Source: Candidatus Latescibacterota bacterium
GTDB lineage: Bacteria; Latescibacterota; UBA2968; UBA8231
Assembly: GCA_965248355.1 (NCBI GenBank)
Contig: OZ252098.1
Location: forward strand, 1,390,098-1,454,097
Direction: 5' to 3'
DNA: 64,000 nt
The notes beneath the pieces are model-generated. The model searched no databases, was not told where the DNA came from, and was given only the letters and a program-made list of their open reading frames with translations. This document shows, in pieces, positions 4,023 to 62,793 of this stretch. How positions within the stretch are numbered: the stretch's first letter is position 1; each line of letters opens with the position of its first letter. A program made the position numbers and the translations under genes.

Positions 4023-4025
4023 GAG

Positions 4026-4934: not shown

Positions 4935-5019
4935 GGCCAGGGTAGCCGGGGGCCCTTTGCGGGCAGCCGAGTCCCCGTGGGTCTCGTCAGCCCGGGGTGC
5001 CCGACCTCCTACCGAATCA

Positions 5020-5240
5020 GGCCGAGCTTTCCGACCCGGACCTGCTTGCCGGCGACGAGGCGGTAGAGGTACAGCCCCGAAGCGAGGGGCGGCCGGCTTC
5101 GTCGGTGCCGGACCAGACGCGGGTGTGAAGCCGGGCGTCAGGATCTCGCCGCGACCAGTTCGGTGACCCGCTGACCCGCGGTGTTGTGAATGGCCAGAGT
5201 CACCGGCGCGGCCTCCGGCAACTGGAAGCGCAAGGTGGTT
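5020..5240 (-). pseudogene. Degraded C-terminal remnant of a T9SS/FlgD-Ig-like C-terminal sorting-domain protein
   Basis: Minus-strand translation gives '...VTLAIHNTAGQRVTELV...' and 'SGLYLYRLVAGKQVRVGKLGLIR*' across two frames, with an internal stop. It resembles the intact CTD at 62794–63402. The remnant abuts the IS256 left end. Confidence 0.4.
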
Positions 5241-5409
5241 TCGGAGTTTCTTCGCTACCCTCGAAACCGACTTGCCGGACCGTCATGAGCTACTATCGAA
5301 AGGTGTGGAAAAAGAGAAAAGGCGACCCTACCCTTCCTAATTAGCAGCACACCACGAACGGCCCGGGTGACGCCGGGCCTGGAAGGAGAGAGTCGCCGTG
5401 AAGGAATCT

Positions 5410-38566: not shown

Positions 38567-39379
38567 TCACGCTTCGGCCGGCGAGGCCGTGGCCCCCGCC
38601 TGGGCGCCGGCGTTCACCCCCAGCCCGCGGCGGTAGGCCTCCAGGGGCAGCAGATCCTCGGGGCCCACGTTGCCGATGTTGGCCTGGGGGCCGAAGCGGT
38701 CGATCAGGTCCCGGCGCATGCTGTGCACGTGATGCTCGCTCACCCCGGCGATCCACGGGCCGGGCAGCTCGAACATCACCTTCTCCAGGCCAACGGAGTC
38801 GACGATCCCGTCGATGTCGGCCGCCGTCCCCGCGTCGCCGCGGATCAGCTCCGCCGCCTCCACCAGAAGCAGGCTGGCTCCCGCCTCCATGCACGCCCTG
38901 GCGTCGTCGGCCAGGGGTACGGCGTTGGCCAAGCCTTCCTTCTTGCCCACCTCCCCGAGGACCTTCAGCCCGAACTCCTCTACCGCCCGGACGATGACCC
39001 GCTCCTTCCACCGCAGCGTCACCGGGGCCAGGTTGTCCGAGACCTCCACCCAGCGGTAGCCGGCCTCGACACAGGCCGGGAGGTAGCGTTCCAGGAGGCC
39101 GTGGACCTCGGCGTACTCCAGGAACTGCCCCCCGGGGAAGGGCTCCACGTGCCACGACAGGTAGCGGTCGATCTTCTCCGTCAGCAGCTTCGCCGGGTGC
39201 AGCCGCGAGAGCCCCACGGCGATCTTGGCGAAGTCGAAGCAGTCGGCCCCGACCGCGATCAGGTCCCGCTGCCGGTGCGGCCCGAGGCCCCAGTCGATGA
39301 CCATTGTCAGCCCCGAGGCGCGCGGCTTGGCGGTGCGCTCCGGGGCCAGATGTCCGTCGAGTCCGTCGAAGGGATGCAC
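38567..39379 (-). CDS. comA: (2R)-phospho-3-sulfolactate synthase (ComA family)
   Basis: 'KPRASGLTMVIDWG...DFAKIAVGLS...FPGGQFLEYA...WVEVSDN...VLGEVGKK...VMFELP' follows the ComA family pattern, including the diagnostic 'KPR..GLT.V.D.G' N-terminus and 'EVGKK'. Confidence 0.75.
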   Translation of the reverse strand: MHPFDGLDGHLAPERTAKPRASGLTMVIDWGLGPHRQRDLIAVGADCFDFAKIAVGLSRLHPAKLLTEKIDRYLSWHVEPFPGGQFLEYAEVHGLLERYLPACVEAGYRWVEVSDNLAPVTLRWKERVIVRAVEEFGLKVLGEVGKKEGLANAVPLADDARACMEAGASLLLVEAAELIRGDAGTAADIDGIVDSVGLEKVMFELPGPWIAGVSEHHVHSMRRDLIDRFGPQANIGNVGPEDLLPLEAYRRGLGVNAGAQAGATASPAEA

Positions 39380-39443
39380 TTCGCGGTCCTTCGTGGTGGG
39401 TTTGGAAGCGCGCTAACCTACGAAAAGGCCCCCTACTCCGTCA

Positions 39444-39481
39444 CGGCACTTGCCGCGTTCCCCCGAGGCCCGCGATGTTTC
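39444..39481. promoter_or_regulatory. 38-bp bipartite motif R1 (CGGCACTTGCCGC–N15–GCGATGTTTC). Putative operator/FCB-type promoter (TTG...TAnnTTTG-like) upstream of the helicase gene.
   Basis: A near-palindromic 13-mer plus a conserved 10-mer at fixed spacing. The same architecture recurs at 47087–47124. Confidence 0.4.
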
Positions 39482-39543
39482 TGACCGCCGCGGGCGACCG
39501 AGAGCCCGCCGGCCGGTTCCGGTCCGAGTAGGAATGACCATCC

Positions 39544-42500
39544 ATGGAAACAGGCTCTACTCTCCCATGTCTCTCGCTGGACCTCGAGGTCGGAAAGCAG
39601 GACCGTCGCATCCATGCGTTCGCCGCGATCCGATCGGATACCGACGACCGCCTCGTCTTCAACGGCGGTAACCTCGCCGCAGAACTGGCAAGACTGGACG
39701 ATCTCGCGCACGGTGCCGACTTCCTGCTGGGCCACAACCTGGTCCTCTTCGACCTGCCGCATCTGAAAGCCGCGAAACCCAACCTCCGGCTGTTGCGGTT
39801 GCCGGCGGTGGATACGCTGTGGCTCAATCCCCTCGCCTTTCCGCGTAACCCCTATCACGGTTTGGTCAAGCATTACCAGGACGGACAACTCAAGCGAGGG
39901 CGGCTGAACGATCCCGAACTCGATGCCCGGCTCGCGCTCGACGTCTTTCGTGACCAATGGCGCGCTCTCGGCTCCGCTTCACCGGATCTCTTGCTCGCGT
40001 GGCATTGGTTGACAACGGCGGGCGATATCGGGGACGGCTTCGACAGATTCTTCTCCTCGCTGCGTGAGTCTCCCCGGCCCTCGGACGCGGAAGCCCGCGC
40101 GGCGATAGAGGGACGGTTGGCGGACAGCGCCTGCCGGACCCACGGGCGCGAGGCCACGACAGATCCGGCCCTCTTTGGCTGGGCGCTGGCCTACGCCCTC
40201 GCCTGGCTTTCGGTGGCCGGTGGCAACTCTGTCATGCCGCCGTGGGTACGCCACCAATTCCCCGAGGCGGGACGACTGGTTAGCCGGCTGCGGGATACAG
40301 CTTGTGGAGACTCCGCCTGCGTGTGGTGCCGGGAGCGGCATGACGCCCGCAGGGAACTCTCCCGCTGGTTCGGCTTCAACGGCTTCCGTCCCGAACCTTC
40401 GAGCGCGGACGGAAGCCCGATGCAGCAGTCCATCGTTGAAGCGGCGATGGCCGGGGAGCACGTCCTCGGGATCCTTCCCACCGGCACCGGAAAGTCGCTC
40501 TGCTACCAGATCCCGGCTCTTTCGCGTTACGACAAGACCGGCGCCCTTACAGTGGTGATCTCACCCCTGGTCGCGCTCATGGCGGACCAGGTGGCGGGAC
40601 TGGAAGCACACGGCATCGGGTCGTGTGTCGCCATTAACGGCCTTCTGTCCATGCCCGAGCGGGCCGATGCGCTGGACCGGGTGCGGCTCGGAGACGCCGG
40701 ACTGGTGCTCGTCTCGCCCGAGCAGCTGCGCAGCCAGTCCTTCCGCCGCGTGCTGAACCAGCGCGAGATCGGCGCCTGGGTCATGGACGAAGCCCACTGC
40801 CTGTCGCGATGGGGGCACGACTTCCGACCCGACTACCGCTACGTGGGGCGCTTCATACGCGAGAAGGCGGGATCGGGGCCTGTCCCGCCGGTGTTGTGCC
40901 TCACCGCGACCGCGAAGCCCGATGTCGTCGAGGACATCGCCCGGTACTTCCGAGACTCCATCGGAGCGGAGCTCACAGTCTTCGACGGCGGAGCCCAGCG
41001 CACGAACCTCGAGTTCGTGGTGGTTCCGACCACCGGTGGCGAAAAGTTTTCTCACATCCACCAGATCCTGATGGCTGACCTGCCCCAGGACACGCCCGGC
41101 GGTGCCATCGTCTACTGTGCGACCCGGCGTCAGACCGAAGAGGTGGCGGAGTTTCTGCAGATGAAGGAGATCGCGGCGGACCACTTCCACGCGGGTCTGC
41201 CGCCCGAGACCAAGAAGAGCGTCCAGCTACGCTTCATCGCGGGCGAGCTCCGGGTGATCGCCGCCACCAATGCCTTCGGCATGGGCATCGACAAGCCGGA
41301 CGTGCGGCTGGTGATCCACGCCGACATCCCGGGCTCGCTCGAGAACTACCTGCAGGAGGCGGGGCGCGCCGGGCGGGACCGGGAGACCGCGCGCTGTGTG
41401 CTGTTGTACTCGACGGACGACGTCGAGCGCCAGTTCGGGATGTCCGCCCGGTCGCGCCTCACGCGCCGGGAAATCCACGGCATCCTGCGGGCGCTCCGGA
41501 ACCTCGACCGGAAGAAGCGTCTGAAGGGCGAGGTGGTTGCCACCGCGGGCGAGATCCTCCTGGAGGAGGACGAGAAGGTATTCGAGCGGGACTCAGCCAC
41601 CGACGATACCCGGGTGCGGACCGCCATCGCCTGGTTGGAGGAGGCGGTGCTGCTCACCCGTGAGGAGAACGAGGTGCGGGTGTTTCCCTCGTCCCTTCGG
41701 GTGAGTTCGGTGGAAGAAGCCCGAGCCAAGATCGAGAGCTCGCCCATTGCGGACGCCTACCGCCACCAGTTCCAGCTCATCGCTGAGAAGCTGATCGACG
41801 CCGACCCGGACGAAGGCATCTCCACCGATGAGCTGATGGGCGTGTCTGGCTTGAGCCCCGAAGGTGTACGCGCCGCCCTCTACGACCTGGAGCGCCTCGG
41901 CATCGCGAGGAACGAAACGGCGCTCACCGCCTTCGTCCATACCGGGGTGGAGAGAAGCTCGCTGAAGCGTCTTGACGAGGCGGAGAGTCTTGAGAAGGCA
42001 TTGATCGAGCACCTCCGTCTTGCTGCGCCGGACATGGGTAAGGGTGAGTCCTGGGCTCTGCATTTACGAGTCGCGTCGCAGGTTCTGCGAGATGCTGGGG
42101 TTGTCGATCCTCTTCCCGAGCGGCTATGGCGCATTCTTCGCAGCATTGCCGCTGACGGCCGCGGCGAGGGGGGCGGCTCTGGGAGCCTCGGGATCCGGAA
42201 GCGCGATGCGGAGACCGTGCAGGTAACACTGCAACGCGACTGGCAAGCCCTGGAGGAGACCGCATCGCGGCGCCGTGCGGGGTCGAGACGCCTGCTGGAA
42301 CACCTGCTCGCCGGCCTGTCGCCTGGGAGCCGGGGCACGGATCTCCTGGCCGAGACCACCCTGGGAGAGCTCATGGGCGCGCTAATGTCCGACTTGCTCC
42401 TCAAGAGCAGGCTCAAGAGTCCTGAGAAACTGCTGGACCGAGCTCTCCTGTGGCTGCACGAGCAGGAGGTCATCCGCCTCCACAAGGGTCTCGCGGTCTT

Positions 42501-44748
42501 TCGCCCCGCCATGACCATCCGGCTCACGGACGAGAAGCCGGGGCGGGGATTCGCCACGGCCGACTTCGAGCCGCTCAGACTGCACTACGAGGGGCAGGTT
42601 CGGCAAATCCACGTCATGGTGGAATTCGCGCGGCGGGGTCTGGAGGCCATGGCGGAGGCGCTTCGTCTGGCCATGGAATACTTCGGCATGAACGAGGAGG
42701 AATTCCTGCACCGCTGGCTTCCGGAACGGAGTCGAGAGATCGCCCGCGAGACCACCCCGGAATCGTGGCGGACCATCGTCGAGAGCCTCAAGAACCCCGT
42801 CCAACAGCGGATCGTTGCGGATGATCGAGAGCAGACGAACGTGCTGGTTCTCGCCGGTCCTGGTTCAGGAAAAACGCGGGTGCTGGTGCATCGCATCGCC
42901 TACCTGGTGCGGGCCAGACGCGAGAATCCCCGCGGCATCCTGGCCCTTGCCTACAACCGGCACGCGGCGGTGGAAATTCGGCGGCGCATCTTGGGATTGA
43001 TCGGTGATGAAGCCCGGGGGGTGACCGTGCTCACGTGCCATGCGCTGGCCATGCGACTGGTGGGAGCCAGCTTCCAAGAGCGAGAACGGCGGCGGCTCGA
43101 CGACGATGCATTCCGGGAGGTGTTGCGCCAGGCAGTAGCACTGCTGCGCGGCGAGGGGCTGGAACCGGAGGAAGCGGACGAACAGCGAGAACGACTTCTT
43201 GCGGGCTTCCGCTGGATCCTTGTGGACGAATACCAGGACATCGCTGCGGATCAGTACGAGTTGATATCGGCCCTGGCCGGACGGACTCAGAGAGATGAGG
43301 ATCGCAAGCTCACCCTCTTTGCAGTAGGGGACGACGACCAGAACATCTACGCCTTCAATGGCGCGTCGGTCGAGTTCATCCGCCGCTTCGAAGCGGACTA
43401 CGGTCCGAAGCCCACCTACTTGACCGACAACTACCGCTCCACCGGCCACATCATCGCTGCGGCCAATGCATTGATCGAGCCGGCGCGCGAACGGATGAAG
43501 ACCGGATATCCCATCTGCATAGATCGGCCTCGTGCGAAGAACCCACCGGGCGGCGACTGGCGGGAACTGGACTCGGTCGCTCAAGGCCGTGTGCAGGTTC
43601 TACCAGCGCTACACGATCCGATCATACAAGCGCAGGTTGCGATCACGGAGTTGCAACGCCTCGCTACCCTAGCTCCCGACTGGGACTGGTCCAGGTGCGG
43701 GGTCGTCGCGCGGGAATGGAAGTACCTCGATCCGGTACGTGCATTCTGCGAAGTAAATGGTCTTCCGGTCCAGATGGGAAACGAAGACATCCCGAGCTTC
43801 TGGCTCCTGCGAGACACCCGGACGATGGTCGAATGGCTGCGTGGACGGGATACCTCCTTGGTGAACAGCCCCGACCTCCGTGATTGGGTGAATGCACGTC
43901 CTTCAGGACCCTGGGTCGAGCTTCTTCAGGAGGCTCTGGATGAACATGAGCTTGAAACCGGAGCAGGTGCGGAAGTGAGGGTGGACCCCTTCATCGAGTG
44001 GCTGGCCGAGTGGGGCCGGGAACTTCGTCGCCGCCAGCGCGGGCTCCTGCTGTTGACCGCACATCGCGCCAAGGGATTGGAGTTCGACCACGCGGCCGTG
44101 CTTGACGGAGGCTGGAACAAGATCGACGTCGACAAGGGGGAGGACGAGGACGCGCCAAGACGGCTCTACTACGTGGCCATGACCCGCGCCCGGAAGACCC
44201 TTGCTCTGATTCGATTTCCCGGGCCGCATCGGCTGCTTGATGAATTGCAGGGCAATCCCTCGGTGCTGCAACGAGACGCCGGGTGGCCTGACTTCGCGAG
44301 GGAACCTGAGGCCCCGGCGTATTCGGGGCGATCACGCCCGCACCACGCCCCTGGCGGCTTGCTGCCGGAAACCCTGGAACTCGCGCGTCAATATCGACGG
44401 CCGGGCCTGCGCAGGGTCGATCTGGGATTCGCGGGGCGTCTTCGGCCCAACCATCCGGTGCATCGTGCGATCTCCGCCCTGTCGTCCGGCGATAAGCTGG
44501 AGACACGCGTGACCGAGGCGGGACGTTGGGAATTGCTCGACCTCTCAGGAAGGGTGGTGGGGCGCCTTGCCCGTGACTTCAAACCCCCACCGGGAACGCA
44601 GTGCAGGTCCGCAACAGTTCTGGCCATCATGTCCTGGAGCCGTGACCTGTCGGACTCAAAATACCACGACAGCATACCGTGCGATTCCTGGGAGGTCGTG
44701 GTGCCGGAGTTGGTGTTCGAACCAGTGGCGAGCAACCCGGAAGGTTGA
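39544..44748 (+). CDS. Giant tri-domain nuclease-helicase: DnaQ/DEDDh 3'-5' exonuclease + RecQ-family SF2 helicase + UvrD/PcrA-family SF1 helicase (1734 aa)
   Basis: N-terminal exonuclease 'LDLEVGKQ...FLLGHNLVLFDLPHL'. RecQ motifs 'LGILPTGTGKSLCYQIPAL', 'DEAHCLSRWGHDFRPDY', 'ATNAFGMGIDKPDVRLVIH'. UvrD motifs 'VLAGPGSGKT', 'ILVDEYQD', 'YRST', 'TAHRAKGLEFD', 'YVAMTRAR'. Confidence 0.8.
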   Translation: METGSTLPCLSLDLEVGKQDRRIHAFAAIRSDTDDRLVFNGGNLAAELARLDDLAHGADFLLGHNLVLFDLPHLKAAKPNLRLLRLPAVDTLWLNPLAFPRNPYHGLVKHYQDGQLKRGRLNDPELDARLALDVFRDQWRALGSASPDLLLAWHWLTTAGDIGDGFDRFFSSLRESPRPSDAEARAAIEGRLADSACRTHGREATTDPALFGWALAYALAWLSVAGGNSVMPPWVRHQFPEAGRLVSRLRDTACGDSACVWCRERHDARRELSRWFGFNGFRPEPSSADGSPMQQSIVEAAMAGEHVLGILPTGTGKSLCYQIPALSRYDKTGALTVVISPLVALMADQVAGLEAHGIGSCVAINGLLSMPERADALDRVRLGDAGLVLVSPEQLRSQSFRRVLNQREIGAWVMDEAHCLSRWGHDFRPDYRYVGRFIREKAGSGPVPPVLCLTATAKPDVVEDIARYFRDSIGAELTVFDGGAQRTNLEFVVVPTTGGEKFSHIHQILMADLPQDTPGGAIVYCATRRQTEEVAEFLQMKEIAADHFHAGLPPETKKSVQLRFIAGELRVIAATNAFGMGIDKPDVRLVIHADIPGSLENYLQEAGRAGRDRETARCVLLYSTDDVERQFGMSARSRLTRREIHGILRALRNLDRKKRLKGEVVATAGEILLEEDEKVFERDSATDDTRVRTAIAWLEEAVLLTREENEVRVFPSSLRVSSVEEARAKIESSPIADAYRHQFQLIAEKLIDADPDEGISTDELMGVSGLSPEGVRAALYDLERLGIARNETALTAFVHTGVERSSLKRLDEAESLEKALIEHLRLAAPDMGKGESWALHLRVASQVLRDAGVVDPLPERLWRILRSIAADGRGEGGGSGSLGIRKRDAETVQVTLQRDWQALEETASRRRAGSRRLLEHLLAGLSPGSRGTDLLAETTLGELMGALMSDLLLKSRLKSPEKLLDRALLWLHEQEVIRLHKGLAVFRPAMTIRLTDEKPGRGFATADFEPLRLHYEGQVRQIHVMVEFARRGLEAMAEALRLAMEYFGMNEEEFLHRWLPERSREIARETTPESWRTIVESLKNPVQQRIVADDREQTNVLVLAGPGSGKTRVLVHRIAYLVRARRENPRGILALAYNRHAAVEIRRRILGLIGDEARGVTVLTCHALAMRLVGASFQERERRRLDDDAFREVLRQAVALLRGEGLEPEEADEQRERLLAGFRWILVDEYQDIAADQYELISALAGRTQRDEDRKLTLFAVGDDDQNIYAFNGASVEFIRRFEADYGPKPTYLTDNYRSTGHIIAAANALIEPARERMKTGYPICIDRPRAKNPPGGDWRELDSVAQGRVQVLPALHDPIIQAQVAITELQRLATLAPDWDWSRCGVVAREWKYLDPVRAFCEVNGLPVQMGNEDIPSFWLLRDTRTMVEWLRGRDTSLVNSPDLRDWVNARPSGPWVELLQEALDEHELETGAGAEVRVDPFIEWLAEWGRELRRRQRGLLLLTAHRAKGLEFDHAAVLDGGWNKIDVDKGEDEDAPRRLYYVAMTRARKTLALIRFPGPHRLLDELQGNPSVLQRDAGWPDFAREPEAPAYSGRSRPHHAPGGLLPETLELARQYRRPGLRRVDLGFAGRLRPNHPVHRAISALSSGDKLETRVTEAGRWELLDLSGRVVGRLARDFKPPPGTQCRSATVLAIMSWSRDLSDSKYHDSIPCDSWEVVVPELVFEPVASNPEG

Positions 44749-44899
44749 GCAACGTCTTGCGGAACAGCTGCGGTGCCCCGGTGCCTGCGCTCGGATTCGC
44801 TCAAGCGGCGGCTGCCTCGGGGCGATTTTCCATCCGCCGCCCGCAAAGCTACCTTCCCGGCAGGCGTCTCGACCCGGCGCCGATCCCGAGGAGGCCGCC

Positions 44900-45808
44900 A
44901 TGACCATCACAGCCGACGTTCAGACCCTTCCGCAGCGCATCCTCGGCAAGACCGGCGAGCGCGTCCCCGTCCTCGGCCTCGGCTCGGCCTGCGGAGGACT
45001 GGGCCTGGGCGACGCCGAGGCGATCGAGCTCTACGAGAAGGCCATCGACCGCGGCGTCACCTACATCGACACCGCCCCGGGCTACGAGCGCGCCCAGCGG
45101 CAGCTCGGACACGTGGTGCCCCGCCGCCGCGACGAGCTCTTCCTGGTCACCAAGTCGCCCACCGCCGACGGCGCCGAGGCCGTGCGCCTGCTGGAGCAGA
45201 ACCTGCGCGATCTCGGCACCGACGCCGTGGACCTGTGCTACGTCCACTCCCTGGGCAACTACGACGTCGACCAGGTCCTGGCCCCCGACGGCGCCCTCGC
45301 CGGTTTGCGAGAAGCCCAGAGGCGGGGGCTGACCCGCTACGTCGGCTTCACCGCACATCACAAGACCGGAAGCTCGGAGCGCGTCCTCCGGGAGGCGGAG
45401 GTCGACGTCATCATGGTGGCCCTCAACTTCGTCGACCACCACACCTACGGCTTCGACCGCACCGTGCTGCCCCTGGCCGCCGAACGCAACGTCGGCGTGG
45501 CCGCCATGAAGGTCTACGGCGGCGCCGAGGCGATGGAGTACCAAACGCGGGAGGACGAGGACCAGCGCCCCTCCGCCCTGGAGGCCAGCGCCCCCGCCTT
45601 CGATCACGAACGCGCCCTGCGCTGGGCCCTCGGCCTGCCGGGCGTCAACGTCGCCGTGGTCGGCATGTACTCCGAGGAGGAGCTGGACCGCAACATCGAG
45701 TGGGCCCGCCGCTGGCAGCCGCTGACAGCGGAGGAGGAGGCGCAACTGCTGGAGGAAGGCCGGCGTATCGCCCGCTCCTGGGGCGACCACTACGGGGATA
45801 CCACATGA
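44900..45808 (+). CDS. Aldo/keto reductase-family oxidoreductase
   Basis: 'RILGKTGERVPVLGLGS...' with strong SD 'GAGGAGG' upstream. AKR-like 'IDTAPGY', 'HHKTG'. Confidence 0.7.
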   Translation: MTITADVQTLPQRILGKTGERVPVLGLGSACGGLGLGDAEAIELYEKAIDRGVTYIDTAPGYERAQRQLGHVVPRRRDELFLVTKSPTADGAEAVRLLEQNLRDLGTDAVDLCYVHSLGNYDVDQVLAPDGALAGLREAQRRGLTRYVGFTAHHKTGSSERVLREAEVDVIMVALNFVDHHTYGFDRTVLPLAAERNVGVAAMKVYGGAEAMEYQTREDEDQRPSALEASAPAFDHERALRWALGLPGVNVAVVGMYSEEELDRNIEWARRWQPLTAEEEAQLLEEGRRIARSWGDHYGDTT

Positions 45809-46755
45809 CAACGCCCAAGGGCCAAACAGAACACGCACTGATCGGCGAAGTCGAAAAGCTGATCGATGAAGGAGCGCGGCTCTACGAGAAGGAAACGGAG
45901 GAGTTTCCCCGCCTCCACTTCGACCGGCATCTCTACCAGCCCCTGTTGGTTGAGAAGAGCGACAAGGTAAAGACGGCGCCCCCGGCGTTGAACCAGAGCG
46001 AACAGCGGTTCGTGAAGGATCTGAAAGCCCACTGGAAAGCCGAACGCGACCGATCCCTCGCCGGGATGGAACTGTTCCTCCTGCGGAATCTGAGCCGTGG
46101 GGTCGGCGTTGGCTTCTTTGAGACAAGAGGCTTCTATCCTGACTTCATCCTCTGGATCAAGAAGGGGGAGCAACAGCACATCGTCTTTGTGGAGCCGCAC
46201 GGAATGATCCACGCAGAAGCATACCAGCACGACGACAGGGCCCGGCTTCACGAAAGGCTGGCGGAGTTGACAAGGGAACTCGGCAATGAGAATGTGACCT
46301 TGGACTCCTACATCATTTCCGCAACTCGTTACGACGACCTTCGCAAGAGGTACGACGACGGTTCATGGGACATGGAGAGATTTGCAGGGGCGCATATTCT
46401 GTTTGCGGAAGACTGCTACATCAAGAGGATCTTTCAGGGAGTTTGCCAGGCAAGGCTGCACTTCCCTGAAGACAGAATCGCCGAATTCTGCCGGCGCCAT
46501 CACATCCGGCGCATGGCCCTGTTCGGCTCGGTTCTCCGCGACGACTTCACCTCCGAAAGCGACGTCGATGTGCTGGTGGAGTTCGCGCCCGGCCAAACGC
46601 CGGGACTGGCCTTCATCACCATTCAGGACGAGTTGTCGGAGATATTCGGCCAGCGAGTGGATCTGCACACCTTCAGCGGAATCGAGGGAAGCCGGAACCG
46701 GTTGCTTCGGGAGGAGATTCTCAAGTCTGCGGAGATTCGGTATGAGCAGGCGTGA
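45805..46755 (+). CDS. Fusion of an uncharacterised N-terminal domain (about 200 aa) with a C-terminal MntA-type minimal nucleotidyltransferase (antitoxin-like)
   Basis: C-terminal 'RRMALFGSVLRDDFTSESDVDVLVEF' MNT signature (GS...D.D). The N-terminal part has no recognised motif. ATGA overlap with the AKR stop. Confidence 0.6.
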   Translation: MTTPKGQTEHALIGEVEKLIDEGARLYEKETEEFPRLHFDRHLYQPLLVEKSDKVKTAPPALNQSEQRFVKDLKAHWKAERDRSLAGMELFLLRNLSRGVGVGFFETRGFYPDFILWIKKGEQQHIVFVEPHGMIHAEAYQHDDRARLHERLAELTRELGNENVTLDSYIISATRYDDLRKRYDDGSWDMERFAGAHILFAEDCYIKRIFQGVCQARLHFPEDRIAEFCRRHHIRRMALFGSVLRDDFTSESDVDVLVEFAPGQTPGLAFITIQDELSEIFGQRVDLHTFSGIEGSRNRLLREEILKSAEIRYEQA

Positions 46756-47086
46756 TGACCGGGTAAGCCTGGTCGATATGCTCATCTACGCCAGGGAAGC
46801 CGTCGCCTTGTCCGGGCAGAAAAGTCTGAAGGACCTGGAAAAGGATCGGGTTGTTCAGCTCGCCCTGCAGAAACTGGTGGAGATTGTCGGCGAAGCGGCC
46901 AATCGCGTTTCCCAGGAGACACAGCAAGGTCATCTGGAAATCCCTTGGCCCCAAATCATCGGAATGCGCAACCGCCTGGTTCACGGCTACGATGAGGTCA
47001 ATCTCGAGATCCTGTGGAAGATTGTTGAGACTGACTTCCCTCCACTCATCCAGCAACTGGAAGAGATCGTTGGAGACGAGCCATAG
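46742..47086 (+). CDS. hepT: HepT-like HEPN (DUF86) toxin
   Basis: 'RNRLVHGYDEVNLEILWKIV' R-x4-6-H HEPN motif. Overlaps the MNT gene by 14 bp. Confidence 0.7.
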   Translation: MSRRDDRVSLVDMLIYAREAVALSGQKSLKDLEKDRVVQLALQKLVEIVGEAANRVSQETQQGHLEIPWPQIIGMRNRLVHGYDEVNLEILWKIVETDFPPLIQQLEEIVGDEP

Positions 47087-47124
47087 CGGCACTTGCCGCC
47101 CCGGACCGGGGGCGGCGATGTTTC
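47087..47124. promoter_or_regulatory. 38-bp bipartite motif R2 (copy of R1 architecture) immediately after hepT
   Basis: 'cggcacttgccgc' + 15 nt + 'gcgatgtttc', identical in spacing to R1. Confidence 0.4.
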
Positions 47125-47139
47125 GGGCGAGGGCGATCC

Positions 47140-47594
47140 TACCACCACAAGACCGGAAGCCGGAACGCGTCCTCCGGGAGGCGCAGGTCGACGTCATCAT
47201 CGTAACCCTCAACTTCGACGACCACCACACCTACGGCTTCGACCGCACCGTGCTGCCCCTGGCGGCGGAGCGCAACGTCGGCGTGGCGGCCATGAAGGTC
47301 TACGGCGGCGCCGAGGCGATGGAGTACCGCACCGGTGAGGACGAGGACGGGCGCCCCTCCGCCCTGGAGGCAAACGCGCGGGACTTCGACCACGAGAGAG
47401 CCTTCCGCTGGGCCCTCGGCCTGCTTGGCGTCGGGGTCGCCGTGATCGGCATGTACTCGGAGAAGGAGCTGGACCACAACATCGAGTGGGCCCGCCGCTG
47501 GCAGCCGCTCACGGCGGAGGAGGAGGCGCAATTGCTGGAGGAGGGCCGGCGCATCGCCCGCTCCTGGGGCGACCACTACGGGGACCTGCTGTGA
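47140..47594 (+). pseudogene. Orphan, roughly 90%-identical duplicate of the 3' 455 bp of the AKR gene (45353–45808)
   Basis: Nucleotide and protein alignment: 'RVLREAQVDVIIVTLNFDDHHTYGFDRTVLPLAAERNVGVAAMKVYGGAEAMEY...' vs copy 1 '...REAEVDVIMVALNFVDHHTYGFDRTVLPLAAERNVGVAAMKVYGGAEAMEY...'. No 5' half. Confidence 0.7.
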
Positions 47595-47836
47595 CCCTCT
47601 CCGCTTTGCGGCGGGAGCCGCCCGAGGGCCGCGCCGACTTCGTCAGGGAGATCGCCGACGACGTGAGCCGGCGCATCCGCGAGGGCCTCGTGGCCGAGGC
47701 CGAGGCCCGGGAGTTGGCCGCGGGTCTGCGCTTTCAGGCGGGACTGCTGCTGCCGGGCCGCCTGGAGGCGTTCGACCGCATCTACGGCTCCCGCTTCGAG
47801 CGCCTGATCCGCCAGTTCCTGCGCGGGGAGAGCTGA
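47591..47836 (+). CDS. Hypothetical small protein (GTG start overlapping the AKR-fragment stop)
   Basis: 81-aa ORF with coding-like codon bias. No motif. Confidence 0.3.
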   Translation: MTLSALRREPPEGRADFVREIADDVSRRIREGLVAEAEARELAAGLRFQAGLLLPGRLEAFDRIYGSRFERLIRQFLRGES

Positions 47837-47964
47837 AGGCGACGGCGGTGGTCCCTATGCGTTCGGGTATCGTCGACACCAGCCGGCCCGTCTTGCGAGG
47901 TAGGAGGACAGCGCCGAGCGTTGATGAAGTTGGCTCATCGATCGGATGAGGGAAGCTCGGGTTT

Positions 47965-48756
47965 CTACGGTAACAGAACTGGCTTCAGATCAAACCTGTT
48001 CCCATCGGTGCTCATTTGATAGAGTGGTATATCGGGCATTTCCTTGAGAAGAGCAAGAACCGTCTCGATGTCTGAACGGGAAGCACGTATACCGAAGGTG
48101 ATGGACCGTACGCGTGCATCCGTACTCTTTTCACGGACGAGTTCTCCGGGCTCTTTTGAAAAGAAAACTAGCCGCCACTCAAGCTCGTACCTCCAGCACG
48201 GAGCTTTCGTGTACAGAATCTTATTCATGAAGCCCACAGGGTCTTCAAAGAAACTGAGATCCTCGGTTATTGGACGCCTGTTACTGTATTCGACCCTCCT
48301 GCATGCACTTCCTCCCAGGTCGTTGTTGGGCGTGCGTTCGTATTCGATACAGATACCCCTGTGGTTGTCGGCGTAGTGAGACCACATAAGCACTTCGAAC
48401 GGCGTAGCACTGAGCGAAGCAACACCACAAGTCCGTATTGCTTCCTGCATCCACGAGAGGGCTTCAATCATCTTCTGTCTCTCGTCATGCACATTGTCAA
48501 CGGTGTAGTTCTCCGGTTCGCCCTTGGATCGTGCGCATTCGTTCAAGTGGGCGGCAATGTCCGCGTCCGAAAATGAAGGCTTGAAGACAGAAAGTGTATC
48601 AAAGGGATCATTGAATGAGCGGGGCTTGGCGAGCCAGAGAATCCCTTTGACCAAGCTCGATATGGAATGTTTGTCAATGGGGCAGTACCTAAACAGTGAA
48701 GTAGGGTTGTCCGAAGAGATTTCCTCTCTTGAAATCAAGACTGCATTCCTCCTCAA
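47965..48756 (-). CDS. DUF2971-family protein (low-GC)
   Basis: 'LMWSHYADNHRGICIEY' DUF2971 signature. GC is about 50% against a 70% background. Confidence 0.5.
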   Translation of the reverse strand: MRRNAVLISREEISSDNPTSLFRYCPIDKHSISSLVKGILWLAKPRSFNDPFDTLSVFKPSFSDADIAAHLNECARSKGEPENYTVDNVHDERQKMIEALSWMQEAIRTCGVASLSATPFEVLMWSHYADNHRGICIEYERTPNNDLGGSACRRVEYSNRRPITEDLSFFEDPVGFMNKILYTKAPCWRYELEWRLVFFSKEPGELVREKSTDARVRSITFGIRASRSDIETVLALLKEMPDIPLYQMSTDGNRFDLKPVLLP

Positions 48757-48831
48757 AGAAAGTGCCTGGCAAGGAGAGGCTTGGATTTCCTCTTCGCAGT
48801 CCTGACGGTTCCGCCGCCCCGGCGGTAACCC

Positions 48832-51504
48832 TCAGAACGCCGTCGCCGAGACCGCCTTGGCGATCATCAGCGTGGCGGCGCAGAACATGCCCACCAGGGA
48901 CATGCCCACCCCGAAGCCGACGGCCAGGACCATGGCGTACTGGCGCCACTGCTGGCGGCCGTAGCGCGGCCAGAAGTAGTGCTTGGCGATGAGGGCGCCG
49001 ATGACCTCGGTGAACATGGCGAAGAAGGTCGCCGCGCCCGCCGAGGCCACGCCCCGGATGAAGCCCCAGACGAAGAACATGGGCATGCCGAGGAACCCGA
49101 GGATCGAGTAGAGGCCCAGGCCGAAGACCAGGCCCACGACCATGATGGGCCACTTCACGCCCTTCGTGGGGTGGCCCAGGTCCTCGTCGATCTCGCCGTC
49201 GCCGTCGTCGTCCTTCTGGTTGAGGACCTCCTCGTCGGCCAGGCCGTCGAAGTCCTCGTCGCGGCCGTCGCCCGTCGACTTCGGGTCCTTCCAGAAGATC
49301 TGGAAGAACATGGGGGTCTCCAGCGAGCCCTGGAAGAAGTCGCCCCGGAAGCCGGGATGCGTGTCCAGCTCGAAGAGACAGACCACCTCGCGGTCGTGCC
49401 AGGCCTCCGGCAGGCGCACGCGCAGCATGGTCTCGGCCTGGGCCACCACGCCGCCGTCGGCGGGAGACAGCCGCAGGGGCCGCGGCAGGTCCGGGTTGGT
49501 CCTGCTGTCCGGGGGCGGCTCGAGCAGGACCGGCTGCTGCCGGTCGGCGCCGGCGCCGGGGAAGTCGGTGTAGAAGTACCCCGTCGCCGACCAGGGCCCG
49601 TAGCGCCGCAGCCCGGGATTCTGGATCTGCACCTCGTCGGAGACCCGGACGCGCCAGTAGTAGAGGGAACGGTCCTTCAGGTTGGCCGGGCTCCAGGCCA
49701 CCTCTCCCGGGGGCAGGACGCGGCCCTCCACCTCTTCCCCCGCCTCGTAGGTGAGGCTGTACTGGGTCGCCGAGAACCGCACCGCCTCCTGGAAGGCGCG
49801 GGCGGGCCAGAAGGTCTGCACGTAGGGGTAGGCGTCGGAGGGGATGGGAGCCAGCTTCCACAGGAAGCTCCAGTACATCAGGCTGGCGCCGAGGACGATG
49901 GGCACCATGACCAGCTCCGCCTTCAGCAGGCTGGTGAAGCGCATCCCCGTCAGCTCGATGATGCGGAAGGTCTCGGCGTTGCCGCCGAAGTCGGCCCCCG
50001 CCAGGGGCACGAACCAGATCTCGACGCCGCGGTACCCGGTGAGAAAGACGATCGCCTCGTGCAGGTGCGGGATCTGCACGTTCTGCCCGATCAAGCCGTC
50101 CAACCGCGCCGAGACGAAGGACATGATGGGGGCGTAGACGAAGGCGAGGACCAGCATCACCACCAGGATGCCGGTGGTGACCAGCGACGGGAACAGGGTC
50201 TTGGCCAGGAGGAGGGGATAGGCGGCGGCGAGGAAGAACAGGCTGAGGCAGATCCACACCGGGAAGTCGCCCCGGTTGAGATGCTTCACGCAATAGCCGC
50301 GGATGCGGGACGGCTCATGGCACTCCGGGTGCCGGCAGACGTCGGGGTCGTGGCCTTGGGCCTCCGCCTCGGACCGGTCCTCCCGGTGCTCCCGGGTGCC
50401 GCGCACCACCTGCACCAGGGAGATGATGGTGGTGGCGAAGATGACGCCCAGCCCGAAGGGCTGCCAGAAGTCGACGCCGGCGGTGATCTGCGTCTGCACG
50501 GCGCCCATGCCCGGCACCCAGTGGGGCATGAACCCGTAGTGGTGCAGCAGCGGCGACAGGACGATGAAGGAGACGACCGCGGCGAAGGAGCCCATGACGC
50601 TGTAGAACGGCAGCAGCAGGCCGGCGAAGATCGGCGACAGGCTGAAGCTGATGGCGATCGGCGTGGCCCCGAGGTAGCGCCCCAGGGTCGGGGTGAGGTC
50701 GGCGAAGGGGATGGGCAGGATCGTGACCTTGGTGCCGGCGAAGACCTCGGTGAGGGACGGGATCCCCACGTAGACGAAACCGAAGACGAGGCCGATCGCC
50801 CCCCCCATGGTGAAGCAGGGCCACTTCCAGGTCTGCTTCTCCGAGCCGCTCTCCTCGGCCAGGGCCATGGCCCCGAGGGCGGCCTGGGGCGCCGTGGGGA
50901 AGGGCAGGCGCTCGCGGTCGGAGACCAGCCGGAAGAGGACGTACCCGGAGGTGAACCAGGTGATGCGGCCGACGATGATGCCCAGCACCAGCAGGGCGAT
51001 GGGCAGGGCCCAGTCCATGTGGAGGAAGGTGCGCTGCAGGATCGCCTCGGAGTCGGGCGGCGGCGAGAACCACCCGTACCCGAGCCACTTCAGGCCCACC
51101 AGCTTCTCCGTGAGGCCGAACTGGGCGGCCTCCTGGGAGCCGACGAAGTACTGCCGCCAGATCAGCTGCAGGAAGGTGCCGGTCTCGGCGCGCACGATCA
51201 GCTGCGAGGCGACGTAGGTGAGCAGGAAGATCTCCTGCCGCCTCAGGGTCGTGAAGGAGCGCTTGGCGATCTCCAGGAAGAGGATCACCGTCACCCACTG
51301 GGCCGCGTCGCCGATGCCGATGCCGGTCACCAGCGACAGGTACATCTGGCCCGGGGTCATGATGAAGGCGATGAACAGCACCCCCACCAGGGTCTTGATG
51401 GTGTACCCGTGCTCGAAGCGTTCCGGCGCCTGCAAGAGATCCCGGTATTCGTTGATCTCCTGGTACTGGCGCTCTCGCTTCGTCTGTCGGGATTTTTCCG
51501 CCAT
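48832..51504 (-). CDS. 890-aa polytopic membrane protein (at least 12 TM). Possibly an OPT-superfamily transporter with an inserted cytoplasmic Cys4 zinc-ribbon and a large extracytoplasmic domain.
   Basis: N-terminal 'YTIKTLVGVLFIAFIMTPGQMYLSLVTG' resembles the OPT-family entry motif. 'CRHPECHEPSRIRGYCVKH' is zinc-ribbon-like. Many hydrophobic helices. Confidence 0.45.
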   Translation of the reverse strand: MAEKSRQTKRERQYQEINEYRDLLQAPERFEHGYTIKTLVGVLFIAFIMTPGQMYLSLVTGIGIGDAAQWVTVILFLEIAKRSFTTLRRQEIFLLTYVASQLIVRAETGTFLQLIWRQYFVGSQEAAQFGLTEKLVGLKWLGYGWFSPPPDSEAILQRTFLHMDWALPIALLVLGIIVGRITWFTSGYVLFRLVSDRERLPFPTAPQAALGAMALAEESGSEKQTWKWPCFTMGGAIGLVFGFVYVGIPSLTEVFAGTKVTILPIPFADLTPTLGRYLGATPIAISFSLSPIFAGLLLPFYSVMGSFAAVVSFIVLSPLLHHYGFMPHWVPGMGAVQTQITAGVDFWQPFGLGVIFATTIISLVQVVRGTREHREDRSEAEAQGHDPDVCRHPECHEPSRIRGYCVKHLNRGDFPVWICLSLFFLAAAYPLLLAKTLFPSLVTTGILVVMLVLAFVYAPIMSFVSARLDGLIGQNVQIPHLHEAIVFLTGYRGVEIWFVPLAGADFGGNAETFRIIELTGMRFTSLLKAELVMVPIVLGASLMYWSFLWKLAPIPSDAYPYVQTFWPARAFQEAVRFSATQYSLTYEAGEEVEGRVLPPGEVAWSPANLKDRSLYYWRVRVSDEVQIQNPGLRRYGPWSATGYFYTDFPGAGADRQQPVLLEPPPDSRTNPDLPRPLRLSPADGGVVAQAETMLRVRLPEAWHDREVVCLFELDTHPGFRGDFFQGSLETPMFFQIFWKDPKSTGDGRDEDFDGLADEEVLNQKDDDGDGEIDEDLGHPTKGVKWPIMVVGLVFGLGLYSILGFLGMPMFFVWGFIRGVASAGAATFFAMFTEVIGALIAKHYFWPRYGRQQWRQYAMVLAVGFGVGMSLVGMFCAATLMIAKAVSATAF

Positions 51505-51672
51505 CAGGCCACCTGTCGCAGGGCGAGATCAGCCAACAAGAGTTTCGCGCCAGCGAAACTCGCAACAAAGCCGCGCAGCGGCTTTGCGATCTCCTGGTAC
51601 TGGCGCTCGCGCTTCGTCTGTCGGGGTTTTTCCGCCATCAGGCCGCCTGTCGCAGGGCGGGATCAACCCACA
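51461..51672. repeat. Tandem direct duplication (about 85 bp ×2, 45-bp spacer) of the 5' end and leader of the 890-aa gene, with hairpins in the spacer
   Basis: 51461–51545 and 51590–51672 are roughly 90% identical. Copy B encodes a decoy 'MAEKPRQTKRERQYQEI...' start. The spacer holds a 9-bp-stem hairpin (gagtttcgc/gcgaaactc) and an 8-bp-stem hairpin. Confidence 0.6.
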
Positions 51673-59387: not shown

Positions 59388-60977
59388 ATGCGCCCGACAC
59401 CACCACCCTACGGCATCATCTACAACTGGGACGGGGCCCCTCACGGGTACGACGAGGTCCCCCAGTCTATGGAGTCCTTCCTGGAGCGCGTCTACGCGCC
59501 GGTGGAACAGACCCAGGTGGGCGCCCTGTTCTGGTGCGTCGGCGAGCACGGGGCGCGCTGGCCCTCGACCGTCCTGGAGCAGCTCGGCGACATCCACTCG
59601 CGGCGCTACGAAGGGGCCGGCCCCCTGGCGCACACCGAGAACATCCGCCTCATGGTCGAGCGCGGGGAGGACCCGCAGGCGGCGCTCATCGAACGCGGCC
59701 GCAGCCTGGGGCTGCAGGTCTACGCCTCGATGCGCATGAACGACAACCACTTCAACGGCGCCCAGGTCTCCGACCTGCCCACCCTGCACCACACGGAGAT
59801 GACCGACCTGCGGCGCCAGCACCCCGAGTGGCTCCTGGGCTCCCGCACCTCCGAGTGGTTCGCCCTCTCCTGGGACATGTCGGTCCCCGAGGTGCGCCGC
59901 CACCGGCTCGAGCACATCCGCGAGGTCTGCGAGCGCTACGACTGGGACGGCGTCGAGCTGGACTGGCAGCGCCACGCCTTCCACCTGCCCGCCGACGACG
60001 CCTTCCGCCTGCGCTACGTCCTCACCGACCTGCAGCGGGCCGTGCGCCGCTGCGCCGACGAGATCGGCCGGAAGCGCGGGAGGCCGCTGTTCGTGGCCGT
60101 GCGGGTCGCCGGCAACCTGCACATGTGCGAGCAGCTCGGCTACGACCTGCCCGCCTGGCTGGAGGAGGGTCTGGTGGACCTCGTCGCGGCCGGCGGCGGG
60201 GCGGCCACCGACCCCGACGTGGACGTGGCCGGTTTCACCGACCTCTGCAGGACCCATGGCGTGCCCATGTACCCCGGCTTCGACGGCGGCCTCCCCGACC
60301 CCTGGGTCGGCCCCGAGCCGGCCGATGACAAGGACCGGCTGCGCACCCGCGCCATCGCCGCCCGCCACTGGCACCAGGGCGCCGACGGGATCTACGCCTT
60401 CAACTGGCACGCCGGCCGGAACAACCGCCGCGAGCTGCTGAACCAGGTCGGCAGCCCGGAGAGCCTGGCCGCCACCGACAAGGTCCATGCCGCCACCCAC
60501 CGGTTCCTCCAGCACGAGGGGGATTGGCGCGGCGCCTACAGCAACGACCGCGTGCGGGGCACGGTCCCGGTGGCCCTCAAGGAGACGATCACCGAATCCG
60601 GCCCGCTGATCCTCCTCGACGTGGCCGACGACTTCGAGACCCACCCGCCCCGCGCCCTGGAGCTGCGCCTCCACCTGAGCGAGTGGGCCCGGGGCGACGA
60701 GGTCACCGTCCGCTGGGACGGCGCCGAGCTGCCGGCGCCCACCGTGACCTACGACACCACCGGCGATCCCCACGGGATCTCGGGGGTGCAGGCCGCCGCG
60801 TGGGTGCGATTCGCACTGGCCCCCGGCCAGGTGAAAGGTGGGCGGCATGGCGTCGAGGTCATCCTGCGGCGACGTCATCCGCAGATGGCCTGCGATCTCG
60901 TGTTGACCGACGTGGAGCTGGTGGTGGCCTACTCGGAAGGCCTGGCCGGCACCCTGCTGGAAGCCGCCGGCTCCTGA
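59388..60977 (+). CDS. Hypothetical TIM-barrel glycosidase-like protein (GHL10/DUF4015-like?)
   Basis: 'RMNDNHF', 'DGVELDWQRH' patterns. No signal peptide. Confidence 0.35.
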   Translation: MRPTPPPYGIIYNWDGAPHGYDEVPQSMESFLERVYAPVEQTQVGALFWCVGEHGARWPSTVLEQLGDIHSRRYEGAGPLAHTENIRLMVERGEDPQAALIERGRSLGLQVYASMRMNDNHFNGAQVSDLPTLHHTEMTDLRRQHPEWLLGSRTSEWFALSWDMSVPEVRRHRLEHIREVCERYDWDGVELDWQRHAFHLPADDAFRLRYVLTDLQRAVRRCADEIGRKRGRPLFVAVRVAGNLHMCEQLGYDLPAWLEEGLVDLVAAGGGAATDPDVDVAGFTDLCRTHGVPMYPGFDGGLPDPWVGPEPADDKDRLRTRAIAARHWHQGADGIYAFNWHAGRNNRRELLNQVGSPESLAATDKVHAATHRFLQHEGDWRGAYSNDRVRGTVPVALKETITESGPLILLDVADDFETHPPRALELRLHLSEWARGDEVTVRWDGAELPAPTVTYDTTGDPHGISGVQAAAWVRFALAPGQVKGGRHGVEVILRRRHPQMACDLVLTDVELVVAYSEGLAGTLLEAAGS

Positions 60978-61329
60978 CGGCCGCCCGACGCCTGGGCGCC
61001 TGAGACCCGTTGCAACCCCCTCTCCGTTGAAGATCACCGCCCTCGAGCTGACGCCGGTGCGCACCCACCGCGAGATGGGACGCCGCGCCCCCAGCGATCC
61101 CGAGCCGGCCGAGTCCCGCCACGTGGTCGTGCAGCTCCACACCAACGCGGGCGTGACCGGGCTCGGCGAGATGTCGGATGTGGGCTGGGAGTTGGACGCC
61201 GGATCCGCCGCCCGCCTGCAGGCCGCCCTGGAGCCGCTGCTGCTCGGCGCCGACGCCTGGCGCCGGGGCCCGCTGCTGGAAGAGCTATCGCGCCGTCCCT
61301 GGGGGAAGTGTACCCCGTCAACTGGACAG

Positions 61330-61865: not shown

Positions 61866-62793
61866 TTGCAAGGAGGGCGCCGAGCTGCCGGCGCCCACCG
61901 TGACCTACTGCTGGAGGAGCTGTCGCGCCGTCCCTGGGAGCACCAGGTCCTCTGCGGCATCGACATGGCCGTGCACGACGCGGTGGCGCGTGAGCTCGGC
62001 GTGCCTCTAACCGCCCTCCTCGGGGGCGCCTTTCGCGACCGCGTCCCCTTCGCCTATCCCCTCGCCTGCTGCCGGGACGAGGCGACGTGGCGGCCAACCT
62101 CGACCGCATCGAGCGCCGCCTCGGCGAGGGGCATGGCGCCTTCCGCTACTACTTCGGCGTCGACCTGGATTGTGACGAGAGCCTCCTCGACCGGGCCCGC
62201 TCCCGCTGGGGCGACGGCCTGACGCTGACCGCCCTCGACGCCAGCGGCCGCTTCTCGCCCGCCGACGCCGTGGCGGCGCTGAAACGCCTGGCGCCCTTTG
62301 CTCCGGACGTCTTCGAGTCCCCGGTGCGCGGCCGGCACCGTGCGCCGGCGGAGGACTTCCTGGCGGTGAAGGCCGAGATCGACGTGCCGATCTCCGAGCA
62401 CACGGCCGACGAAGCCTCAGCCCTGCGGATGGCCCGGGCCGGCGCCGTGGACGTCTTCAACACCGGACTCGGGTACGCCGGCATCGAGCCCTGCCGCCGC
62501 ACCTTCGCCATGGCCCGCCAGTTCGGTCTGGGAACGCTGATGGGCAGCACCGTGGAGATGTCGATCGGCACCGCCGCGAGAGTCCACGTGGCGGCGGCCA
62601 CGGCGAACCTCGATCACGGCTGCTACATGGCGGGCCCCTTGGTGTACCACGAGGACCTAACCGTGGAGCCGGTCCGCTACGAAGAGGGGCAGGTGCTGGT
62701 GCCCGACGGCCCGGGGCTGGGCGTCGAGCTGGATCCCGAGAAGCTGCGGGCGCTGCAGATCTGAGCGGCGCTATTCGATGCGGCTCCAGCCTC

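Follow-up and report, generated by a model that had tools for sequence, protein, structure and literature searches.

Two 38-bp repeats beside a comA operon as likely duplicated copies of an aldo-keto reductase upstream element

Campbell-type or homology-facilitated illegitimate recombination, giving a segmental direct duplication around an acquired island, is a named class of mechanism, and defence-island hotspots between core genes are a concept from E. coli and other pan-genome studies. We compare with both a locus in a 64,000-nucleotide stretch of contig OZ252098.1 (the window), in which two 38-bp bipartite repeats, R1 and R2, bracket a segment encoding a helicase, an aldo-keto reductase (AKR) and a toxin-antitoxin (TA) pair. 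A preliminary description of the window had offered two roles for the repeats, a shared operator and promoter or att-like sites delimiting a mobile defence module. In our analysis R1 and R2 are likely to be paralogous copies of a segment of about 38 bp located directly upstream of the AKR gene, in the divergent comA-AKR intergenic region, and would descend from an old duplication of an R-leader-AKR unit around a defence island, R being most likely the AKR core promoter.

As in segmental duplications of this class, foreign genes of lower GC content lie between two direct copies of one contiguous host segment, which comprises promoter, leader and gene; one copy is intact and the other decayed, the offsets between them are explained by later insertions and deletions, and no recombinase is required. 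R1 and R2 each run colinear with AKR, and intact R-AKR units occur in three related loci (L088, L001 and L089). Unlike the described cases, the unit has here been reduced to a 38-bp stub and a 443-nt gene fragment, and the copies are about 10% diverged, so that the event would be old or the DNA would come from a related strain, by a mechanism that we infer from the sequences. Like known defence hotspots, the interval between the comA operon and a gene for an 890-aa membrane protein holds different defence-type genes in each relative, the cargo comprising a RecQ-UvrD helicase, Type III restriction-modification (RM) genes, MntA-HepT, a PsyrT-like helicase, an AbiC-like gene, a DUF2971/PDC-S31 gene and an ankyrin gene. 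In contrast to those hotspots, it is found in Gemmatimonadaceae, is marked by repeated duplication of AKR and promoter, and bears no mobile-element hallmarks.

The repeats and the AKR copies that follow them

R1 (39444-39481, plus strand) reads CGGCACTTGCCGC-GTTCCCCCGAGGCCC-GCGATGTTTC and is the comA-proximal copy of the AKR upstream element; R2 (47087-47124, plus strand) reads CGGCACTTGCCGC-CCCGGACCGGGGGCG-GCGATGTTTC and is the second copy, belonging to the backbone gene copy AKR_b. Their coordinates and bipartite sequence are as first described, and so are the remaining particulars: R1 ends 62 nt before the helicase ATG at 39544 (given earlier as about 60 bp), the first base of R2 adjoins the hepT stop codon TAG (47084-47086), the 13-mer is a near-palindrome with 10 of its first 12 bases self-complementary (CGGCA-CT-TGCCG), and the 10-mer follows a 15-nt spacer in both repeats. 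The two copies share 13 + 10 identical bases, while the spacer has 6 matches and 9 differences, which gives 29/38 identity overall. Neither this value nor the BLAST E of 0.59 goes beyond what chance pairs give (27-30/38 for the best pairs in simulated windows), as would be expected if the similarity were a coincidence in a GC-rich genome. On the other hand, an exact 13-mer with an exact in-register 10-mer arose in only 2/60 third-order Markov simulations of the window, AKR-derived sequence follows both copies, and 11 copies in 6 genomes retain the same blocks. Because the same two blocks are conserved in six related genomes, the similarity is real beyond doubt, and the probability of coincidence is close to nil.

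Within the 64-kb window R1 and R2 were the sole matches at up to 3 mismatches (0 in 100 shuffles), and neither the 13-mer alone nor the 10-mer alone was over-represented there. Among 185,579 species-representative genomes scanned for the exact pattern, one matched, a Gemmatimonadaceae metagenome-assembled genome (L001), at an orthologous and syntenic locus about 90% identical. A degenerate-pattern scan of viral contigs gave 4 matches, unrelated and due to chance, and a metagenome scan with AKR recovered relatives of at most 64% identity only, mostly marine and none with R upstream. With only 2 copies in 64 kb and one match in 185,579 genomes, a dispersed repeat (of the repetitive extragenic palindrome or miniature inverted-repeat transposable element kind) and a generic promoter motif were both rejected. 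A shared RNA structure was ruled out as well: the R2 spacer folds as a 10-bp GC hairpin (-29.2 kcal/mol, z = -2.0), but R1 of the window does not fold (z = +0.16). Rfam covariance models recognised no family at R1 or R2.

The sequence downstream of each repeat ties both to AKR, and these relationships were established directly. Behind R1, a relic at 39482..39542 (plus strand) comprises an AKR leader with its Shine-Dalgarno sequence (GAGTAGGA) and the first three AKR codons (ATGACCATC, 39534-39542), the nine bases of which are identical to 44900-44908 in AKR_a, the intact copy (44900..45808, plus strand, 302 aa, Pfam PF00248). The order is thus ...GAGTAGGA-ATGACCATC-C-ATG, the helicase open reading frame (ORF) starting two bases past the relic. 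AKR_a has 89-92% nucleotide identity to the AKR genes of L001, L082, L088, L089 and L092. As far as the AKR start, the post-R1 leader is homologous to the uninterrupted R1-leader-AKR sequence of L092 (a local score of 56, where the null gave 16.8 +/- 2.7), and the helicase and the region that follows it (39543-44899) are therefore an insertion after AKR_a codon 3. The left flank of R1, considered as the home of the missing AKR 5' half, was dismissed, the flank being comA.

Behind R2, an AKR_b leader (gggcgagggcgatcc) and mutated first codons (TACCACCAC) occupy 47125..47148 (plus strand), align with ggaagaggaggcgatcATGACAACCAC of L001 and end at an internal deletion junction. A 443-nt fragment of a second AKR copy, absent from the earlier account like the relic behind R1, starts 19 nt past R2 (47143-47584 against 45356-45798, 89.8% nucleotide identity; by tblastn, 88.7% identity across residues 161-301). 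The pseudogene, AKR_b codons ~153-302, spans 47143..47594 on the plus strand. We also observed that the ATG of the R2 10-mer is in frame with this 3' half (47117-47594), forming a 159-aa ORF that could express a truncated reductase.

Relatives were found through searches with ComA and AKR homologues followed by inspection of gene context (L082, L088, L089/L090, L091 and L092; 88-92% identical in shared genes). R1 lies next to comA in six syntenic Gemmatimonadaceae-like loci, with orthologues in L001, L088, L089/L090, L091 and L092 and a left flank 90% identical, while the cargo downstream of it differs (AKR, helicase, ankyrin, MntA variant, VIT-VWA). In the orientation of the window, L088 reads comA, R1 followed after 17 nt by the ATG of AKR_a, MntA-HepT, a decayed R fused to AKR_b codon ~245, and orfZ. 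L092 has comA, R1, a 55-nt leader with a Shine-Dalgarno sequence and AKR_a, then Type III Mod, a Type III Res::MntA fusion, HepT, a scrap, AKR_b from codon ~235, and orfZ. The arrangement in L001 is comA, R1', ankyrin, MntA-HepT', R followed after 16 nt by the ATG of AKR, MntA-HepT, a decayed R fused to AKR_b codon ~275, and orfZ; that in L089 is comA, R1, MntA variant-MntA-HepT', and R followed after 16 nt by the ATG of AKR, then orfZ. L091 has comA, R1 and a VIT-VWA gene, and L082 a PsyrT-like helicase (minus strand), U2 (the proximal upstream region of AKR_a in the window), AKR and an MntA variant. An intact AKR with a GAGGAGG Shine-Dalgarno sequence therefore lies 16-17 nt downstream of R in L088 (R1), L001 (R2) and L089 (R), and R2-type copies at the hepT-R-AKR position occur in L001 (two), L088 and L089.

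Two distant relatives place AKR beside the same comA operon: in L083 (~73% AKR identity) an 82-aa gene follows AKR, but in L087 (~71%) different minus-strand genes do. Because of the 82-aa gene in L083, AKR_b-orfZ is read as the backbone arrangement. AKR_b is broken by at least 5 different deletions (window 47143-47594, L001:4444-4534, L088:7886-8085, L092:1758-2029 and protein P0248), a variety that would be typical of a redundant duplicate. Several of the AKR_b deletions sit at short repeats, for example GERV...SSERV in P0248. The extra copy AKR_a stays intact.

Recombination-site readings and a proposed history

The proposal that R1 and R2 are attL/attR-like sites delimiting a mobile helicase-AKR-TA defence module draws on their position, as direct repeats at the two ends of a lower-GC, defence-rich variable segment next to a conserved core gene, and on L001, where R copies also sit at module boundaries. 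The locus nevertheless differs from an integrase island in several respects: (i) Pfam searches of all interval ORFs gave a helicase, AKR, nucleotidyltransferase and HepT (with DUF2971 just outside) and no integrase or transposase, the annotation of L088 within +/-10 kb has no integrase or transposase either, and a tRNA scan of the window found none; (ii) there is no tRNA or gene-3'-end target and no empty/occupied pair, and R1 and R2 share no contiguous identical core; (iii) L088, L092, L001 and L089 keep R1 and, except for L092, R2-type copies, with differing contents between them; (iv) R2 is contiguous with the AKR leader and a coding relic, and cargo junctions lie downstream of R1 at differing distances among genomes; and (v) only the helicase block is an indel, and its bounds are 39543 and 44899, not R1 and R2. 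The comparison with relatives identified 39543-44899 as the only part specific to the window, and the R1-R2 interval is not an indel unit. The mobile-module claim thus fails, with no single indel unit, no encoded recombinase and a similarity of the repeats that is due to duplication of the AKR 5' region, and we regard it as highly improbable. The R1-R2 interval is instead best read as a composite of separate events, namely the helicase insertion (39543-44899), a decayed Type III RM system and TA genes.

A related proposal would make R1 a cassette-capture site, a promoter-proximal target at which a recombinase, encoded in trans or of unknown nature, would cross over within the hypervariable 15-nt spacer. 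If this were true, defence genes would have been placed repeatedly under one conserved promoter, in an integron-like manner but without IntI or attC. The locus does share with an integron platform (Pc, attI, attC) the varied cargo right after one conserved promoter-like site and the short repeats between modules. It differs in having no IntI, no attC cores, no attC-like hairpin at R1, and cargo junctions that do not fall at a fixed nucleotide. An attC boundary was itself rejected, as neither strand has RYYYAAC / GTTRRRY cores, R1 does not fold and no IntI-like ORF is present. Cassette capture at R1 is very unlikely.

Returning to the duplication of R-leader-AKR, the synteny and the insertion and deletion boundaries were read directly from the loci, and the succession of events proposed here is a reconstruction. 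The ancestral backbone would have carried comA (minus strand) followed by R-leader-AKR-orfZ. A defence island (Type III Mod, Res::MntA and HepT) would then have lodged there, flanked by a direct duplication of R-leader-AKR, with the arrangement comA, R1-AKR_a, island, R2-AKR_b-orfZ as the result. Later, in the lineage of the window, a solitary RecQ-UvrD helicase with its 3' flank (39543-44899) would have entered AKR_a just past codon 3. Because U2 is common to L082, helicase-U2-AKR is suggested as the incoming unit, and homologous recombination on the right with illegitimate recombination on the left would be a likely route. Most of the Type III RM system would then have been lost, leaving X-MntA-HepT (X being a remnant of the Res gene), and codons ~5-152 of AKR_b deleted, so that the recognisable repeats would now be the 38-bp R, the leader relic and the AKR 3' 443 nt. 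The offsets agree with this account: the R1-R2 distance of 7643 less the AKR 3' spacing of 1786 leaves 5857, close to the sum of 5357 (helicase block), ~456 (AKR_b deletion) and 36 (longer R1 leader).

R as a candidate promoter

The six R1 orthologues are conserved in blocks. Mean pairwise identity is 0.90 in the left flank, 0.89 in the 13-mer, 0.56 in the spacer, 0.71 in the 10-mer and 0.54 in the next 30 nt, against a random expectation of 0.50, and block spacing is fixed at 15 nt except in L001, where it is 14 nt. Across copies the 13-mer and xA[T/C]GTT are kept and the spacer is not, which gives the degenerate form CGGCRCTTGCSGS-N14-15-xA[TC]GTT. Within R1 the 13-mer holds TTGCCG (39450-39455) and the 10-mer holds GATGTT (39474-39479), with 18 nt between. 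Because the 13-mer and xA[T/C]GTT are conserved and the spacer is free, a weak sigma70-like AKR promoter is the best functional reading, and R is most likely the AKR core promoter, with TTGCCG as a -35-like and GATGTT as a -10-like element. As in sigma70 promoters, two blocks stand 17-18 nt apart around a free spacer, directly upstream of a gene and oriented towards it; TTG and A2/T6 of the putative -10 are kept in every copy fronting an intact gene except that of L091. The G of TTG is missing, too, from L001-R3 and L088-R2, the copies with a deleted putative -10 and a dead AKR, although their shared ancestry makes this one event. Promoter activity is predicted here from the sequences. If it is correct, R1 would now drive the helicase, and R2 would front the dead AKR_b and possibly orfZ.

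The role as a shared operator and promoter that had first been suggested is thus upheld in part: in three loci an intact AKR starts 16-17 nt past R, the blocks of R are conserved and R faces the downstream genes, but a promoter scan calls neither site. The more specific label of an FCB-type (Fibrobacterota-Chlorobiota-Bacteroidota) promoter was not borne out, the conserved 3' block ending at GTT and fitting a sigma70-like xAnnnT better than TAnnTTTG. Of the elements of such promoters (-33 TTTG, -7 TAnnTTTG), TAnnTTTG is not conserved between the window (GATGTTTC) and its orthologues (GATGTTTG, CATGTTTG, GATGTTAC, GATGTTCT and GACGTTTC); the TTTG part varies among copies (TTTC, TTTG, TTAC, TTCT), and the first T of TAnnTTTG is never present.

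On the opposite strand a candidate comA promoter (39415..39444, minus strand) has the -35 GTGACG (39439-39444) and the -10 TAGGTT (39415-39420) separated by an 18-nt spacer, and adjoins R1 at its first base. In an alignment of the six orthologous loci neither hexamer varies, and GTGACG-18-TAGGTT is likely to be the comA promoter, placed back-to-back with R. This arrangement bears on another reading of the conserved blocks, as a transcription-factor operator co-regulating the divergent comA operon and AKR, instead of or besides -35 and -10 elements. The self-complementary 13-mer, abutting the putative comA -35, would suit it, and the palindrome CGGCA-CT-TGCCG is extended in some genomes to GTCACGGC...GCCGTGAC: the spacers of L001, L088 and L092 are complementary to the conserved left flank (CCGTCACGGC), forming a palindrome with 10-12-bp arms around the 13-mer (L001:7621-7674, z = -3.7; L092:9891-9945, z = -2.5; L088:9662-9716; all on the minus strand). 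However, R1 of the window has no such extension, R2-type copies lack the left half (GTCA) and yet retain the 13-mer, no regulator gene is adjacent, and the conservation of the 10-mer at fixed spacing is left unexplained. We consider an operator unlikely, and it is compatible with the promoter reading rather than exclusive of it.

The spacer hairpin described above, which only R2-type copies have, together with the position of these copies right after the hepT stop codon, gives rise to a further possibility, that R is the 3' end of a MntA-HepT cassette, a terminator or insulator hairpin, and R1 the scar of a former cassette. In none of six genomes, however, does hepT precede an R1-type copy, and R1-type copies share no hairpin; there is no U-tract or T-run and a terminator scan finds none, L092 has hepT without R, and in four loci R runs directly into the AKR start, all of which makes a cassette end quite improbable. 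We also give very little weight to a short upstream ORF or leader peptide, translationally coupled to AKR, that would start at the conserved ATG of the 10-mer. In L088 and L001-R2 ATGTTT does open an 8-codon ORF, the TGA of which overlaps the AKR ATG, and gene callers took the 10-mer ATG as the AKR start in P0253 and P0259, but L089-R has ACG, L091 has no ATG, frame and length vary (19 codons at R1 of the window, out of frame in L092), and no Shine-Dalgarno sequence precedes the 10-mer ATG.

The interpretation of R1 and R2 as duplicated copies of an AKR promoter has itself to be weighed against several observations: (i) TTGCCG-18-GATGTT matches the sigma70 consensus at only 3/6 + 3/6 positions (6/12), unlike a typical promoter, and stays below the threshold of the scan, which makes no call at R1 or R2, and L091 lacks the ATG of the 10-mer; (ii) the spacers of R1 and R2 differ at 9/15 positions although the adjacent AKR paralogues differ by about 10%, and among orthologues with 90% identical flanks the spacer of R1 is no more alike than random sequence, the R2-type spacers being 83% identical; (iii) R2 is perfectly preserved though it fronts the dead AKR_b; (iv) in the phylogeny of AKR a and b the paralogues do not fall into clean clades; and (v) the searches for R extended to the window, to species-representative genomes in a single exact-match scan and to a few relatives, so that further copies may exist elsewhere in the source genome. 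Simple duplication with neutral drift does not account for the spacer divergence, which might result from template switching at quasi-palindromes or from relaxed constraint on the spacer of a promoter. Since the a and b copies form no separate clades, the duplication would be about as old as the divergence of these genomes, unless gene conversion, or import of DNA from a related strain, has obscured the signal.

Other features of the interval and the hotspot

The core left flank of the variable region is a comA-like phosphosulfolactate synthase gene (38567..39379, minus strand), the first gene of a conserved minus-strand operon, assigned from its translation and a 100%-identical 270-aa protein (P0121) bearing PF02679; its synteny extends to L083, L087, L088, L089, L091 and L092. 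The helicase (39544..44748, plus strand, 1734 aa) consists by Pfam of a RecQ/DEAD module fused to a UvrD module and, with its 3' flank, makes up the inserted block 39543-44899, which is missing between R1 and AKR in L088 and L092. Its PADLOC matches are partial only (DpdF/PsyrT and GajB models), and about 260 N-terminal aa precede the two modules without a domain assignment. Homologues of 68-72% nucleotide identity are solitary genes on plasmids or chromids of Alpha- and Gammaproteobacteria (Cereibacter, Paracoccus, Thiothrix, Croceicoccus), which implies a stand-alone gene that would have spread horizontally, with transfer across phyla.

U2 (44821..44899, plus strand), which would have arrived with the helicase block, contains a sigma70-like TTTCCA-17-TACCTT and is shared with L082, where it lies upstream of AKR (score 44 against a null of 15.5 +/- 2.3). 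U2 is at most a possible third, degenerate R: its similarity to R does not exceed chance (p about 0.4), although GGCGATTTTCC within it looks like the decayed R copies in L001 and L088.

Downstream of AKR_a, the X-MntA ORF (45805..46755, plus strand) is a fusion in which about 200 aa from the C-terminus of a Type III restriction Res subunit precede, in the same frame, an MntA nucleotidyltransferase (Pfam NTP_transf_2), and the hepT toxin gene follows (46745..47086, plus strand, Pfam PF01934). Because X matches the Res C-terminus (PADLOC REase_III positions 946-1124 of 1154, plus PDC-S09) and aligns with the end of the L092 Res::MntA fusion, X-MntA-HepT is interpreted as a deletion remnant of an L092-like Mod / Res::MntA island. 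In L092 itself (2403-5804, minus strand) the Type III Res is fused in frame to MntA, 1133 aa in all, with Mod before and HepT after; an RM enzyme fused to a TA antitoxin may merit separate study. Inside the X coding region a sub-threshold Rfam match to DUF3800-XI RNA (45898-45943, minus strand; 23 bits against a gathering score of 37.8, E = 0.1) is probably due to chance.

Beyond AKR_b lies orfZ (47591..47836, plus strand, 81 aa), present after AKR_b in L001, L088, L089 and L092, and then a DUF2971 / PDC-S31 gene (47965..48756, minus strand, by Pfam and PADLOC; low GC of 0.51-0.57), further variable cargo of the hotspot, beyond which the gene for the 890-aa membrane protein runs on the minus strand. 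The stretch from orfZ to this gene (window 47700-48800) forms a second variable slot, which holds the DUF2971/PDC-S31 gene in the window, an AbiC-like gene in L001 (3181-4029) and an APH phosphotransferase in L088 (6607-7686). Farther along, an 85-nt direct repeat (51454-51538 and 51588-51672, 93% identical, 134-nt spacing) is a further case of a duplicated gene 5' end: its first copy spans the start codon and the N-terminal part of the gene for the 890-aa membrane protein (minus strand). Direct repeats of 37 nt (60716-60752 and 61872-61908, 97% identical) and 62 nt (61242-61303 and 61877-61938, 74% identical), ~0.6-1.2 kb apart, lie probably within or between repeated coding segments.

To conclude, R1 and R2 arose in an ordinary way, as a defence-gene hotspot underwent duplication, insertion and decay, and are not the ends of a mobile element, which corrects the annotation of the helicase-AKR-TA block as one mobile defence module with att sites. 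The locus reads as a palimpsest of at least 3 events in a hotspot by the comA operon, in which a Type III RM/HepT island with AKR duplication would have been followed by the helicase and by several deletions. A literature search for Gemmatimonas promoters or transcription start sites gave nothing usable, and R is a first candidate promoter for a phylum for which that search found no mapped promoters. As a candidate native promoter that probably now drives an acquired helicase, it provides a testable example of promoter capture by an incoming gene.

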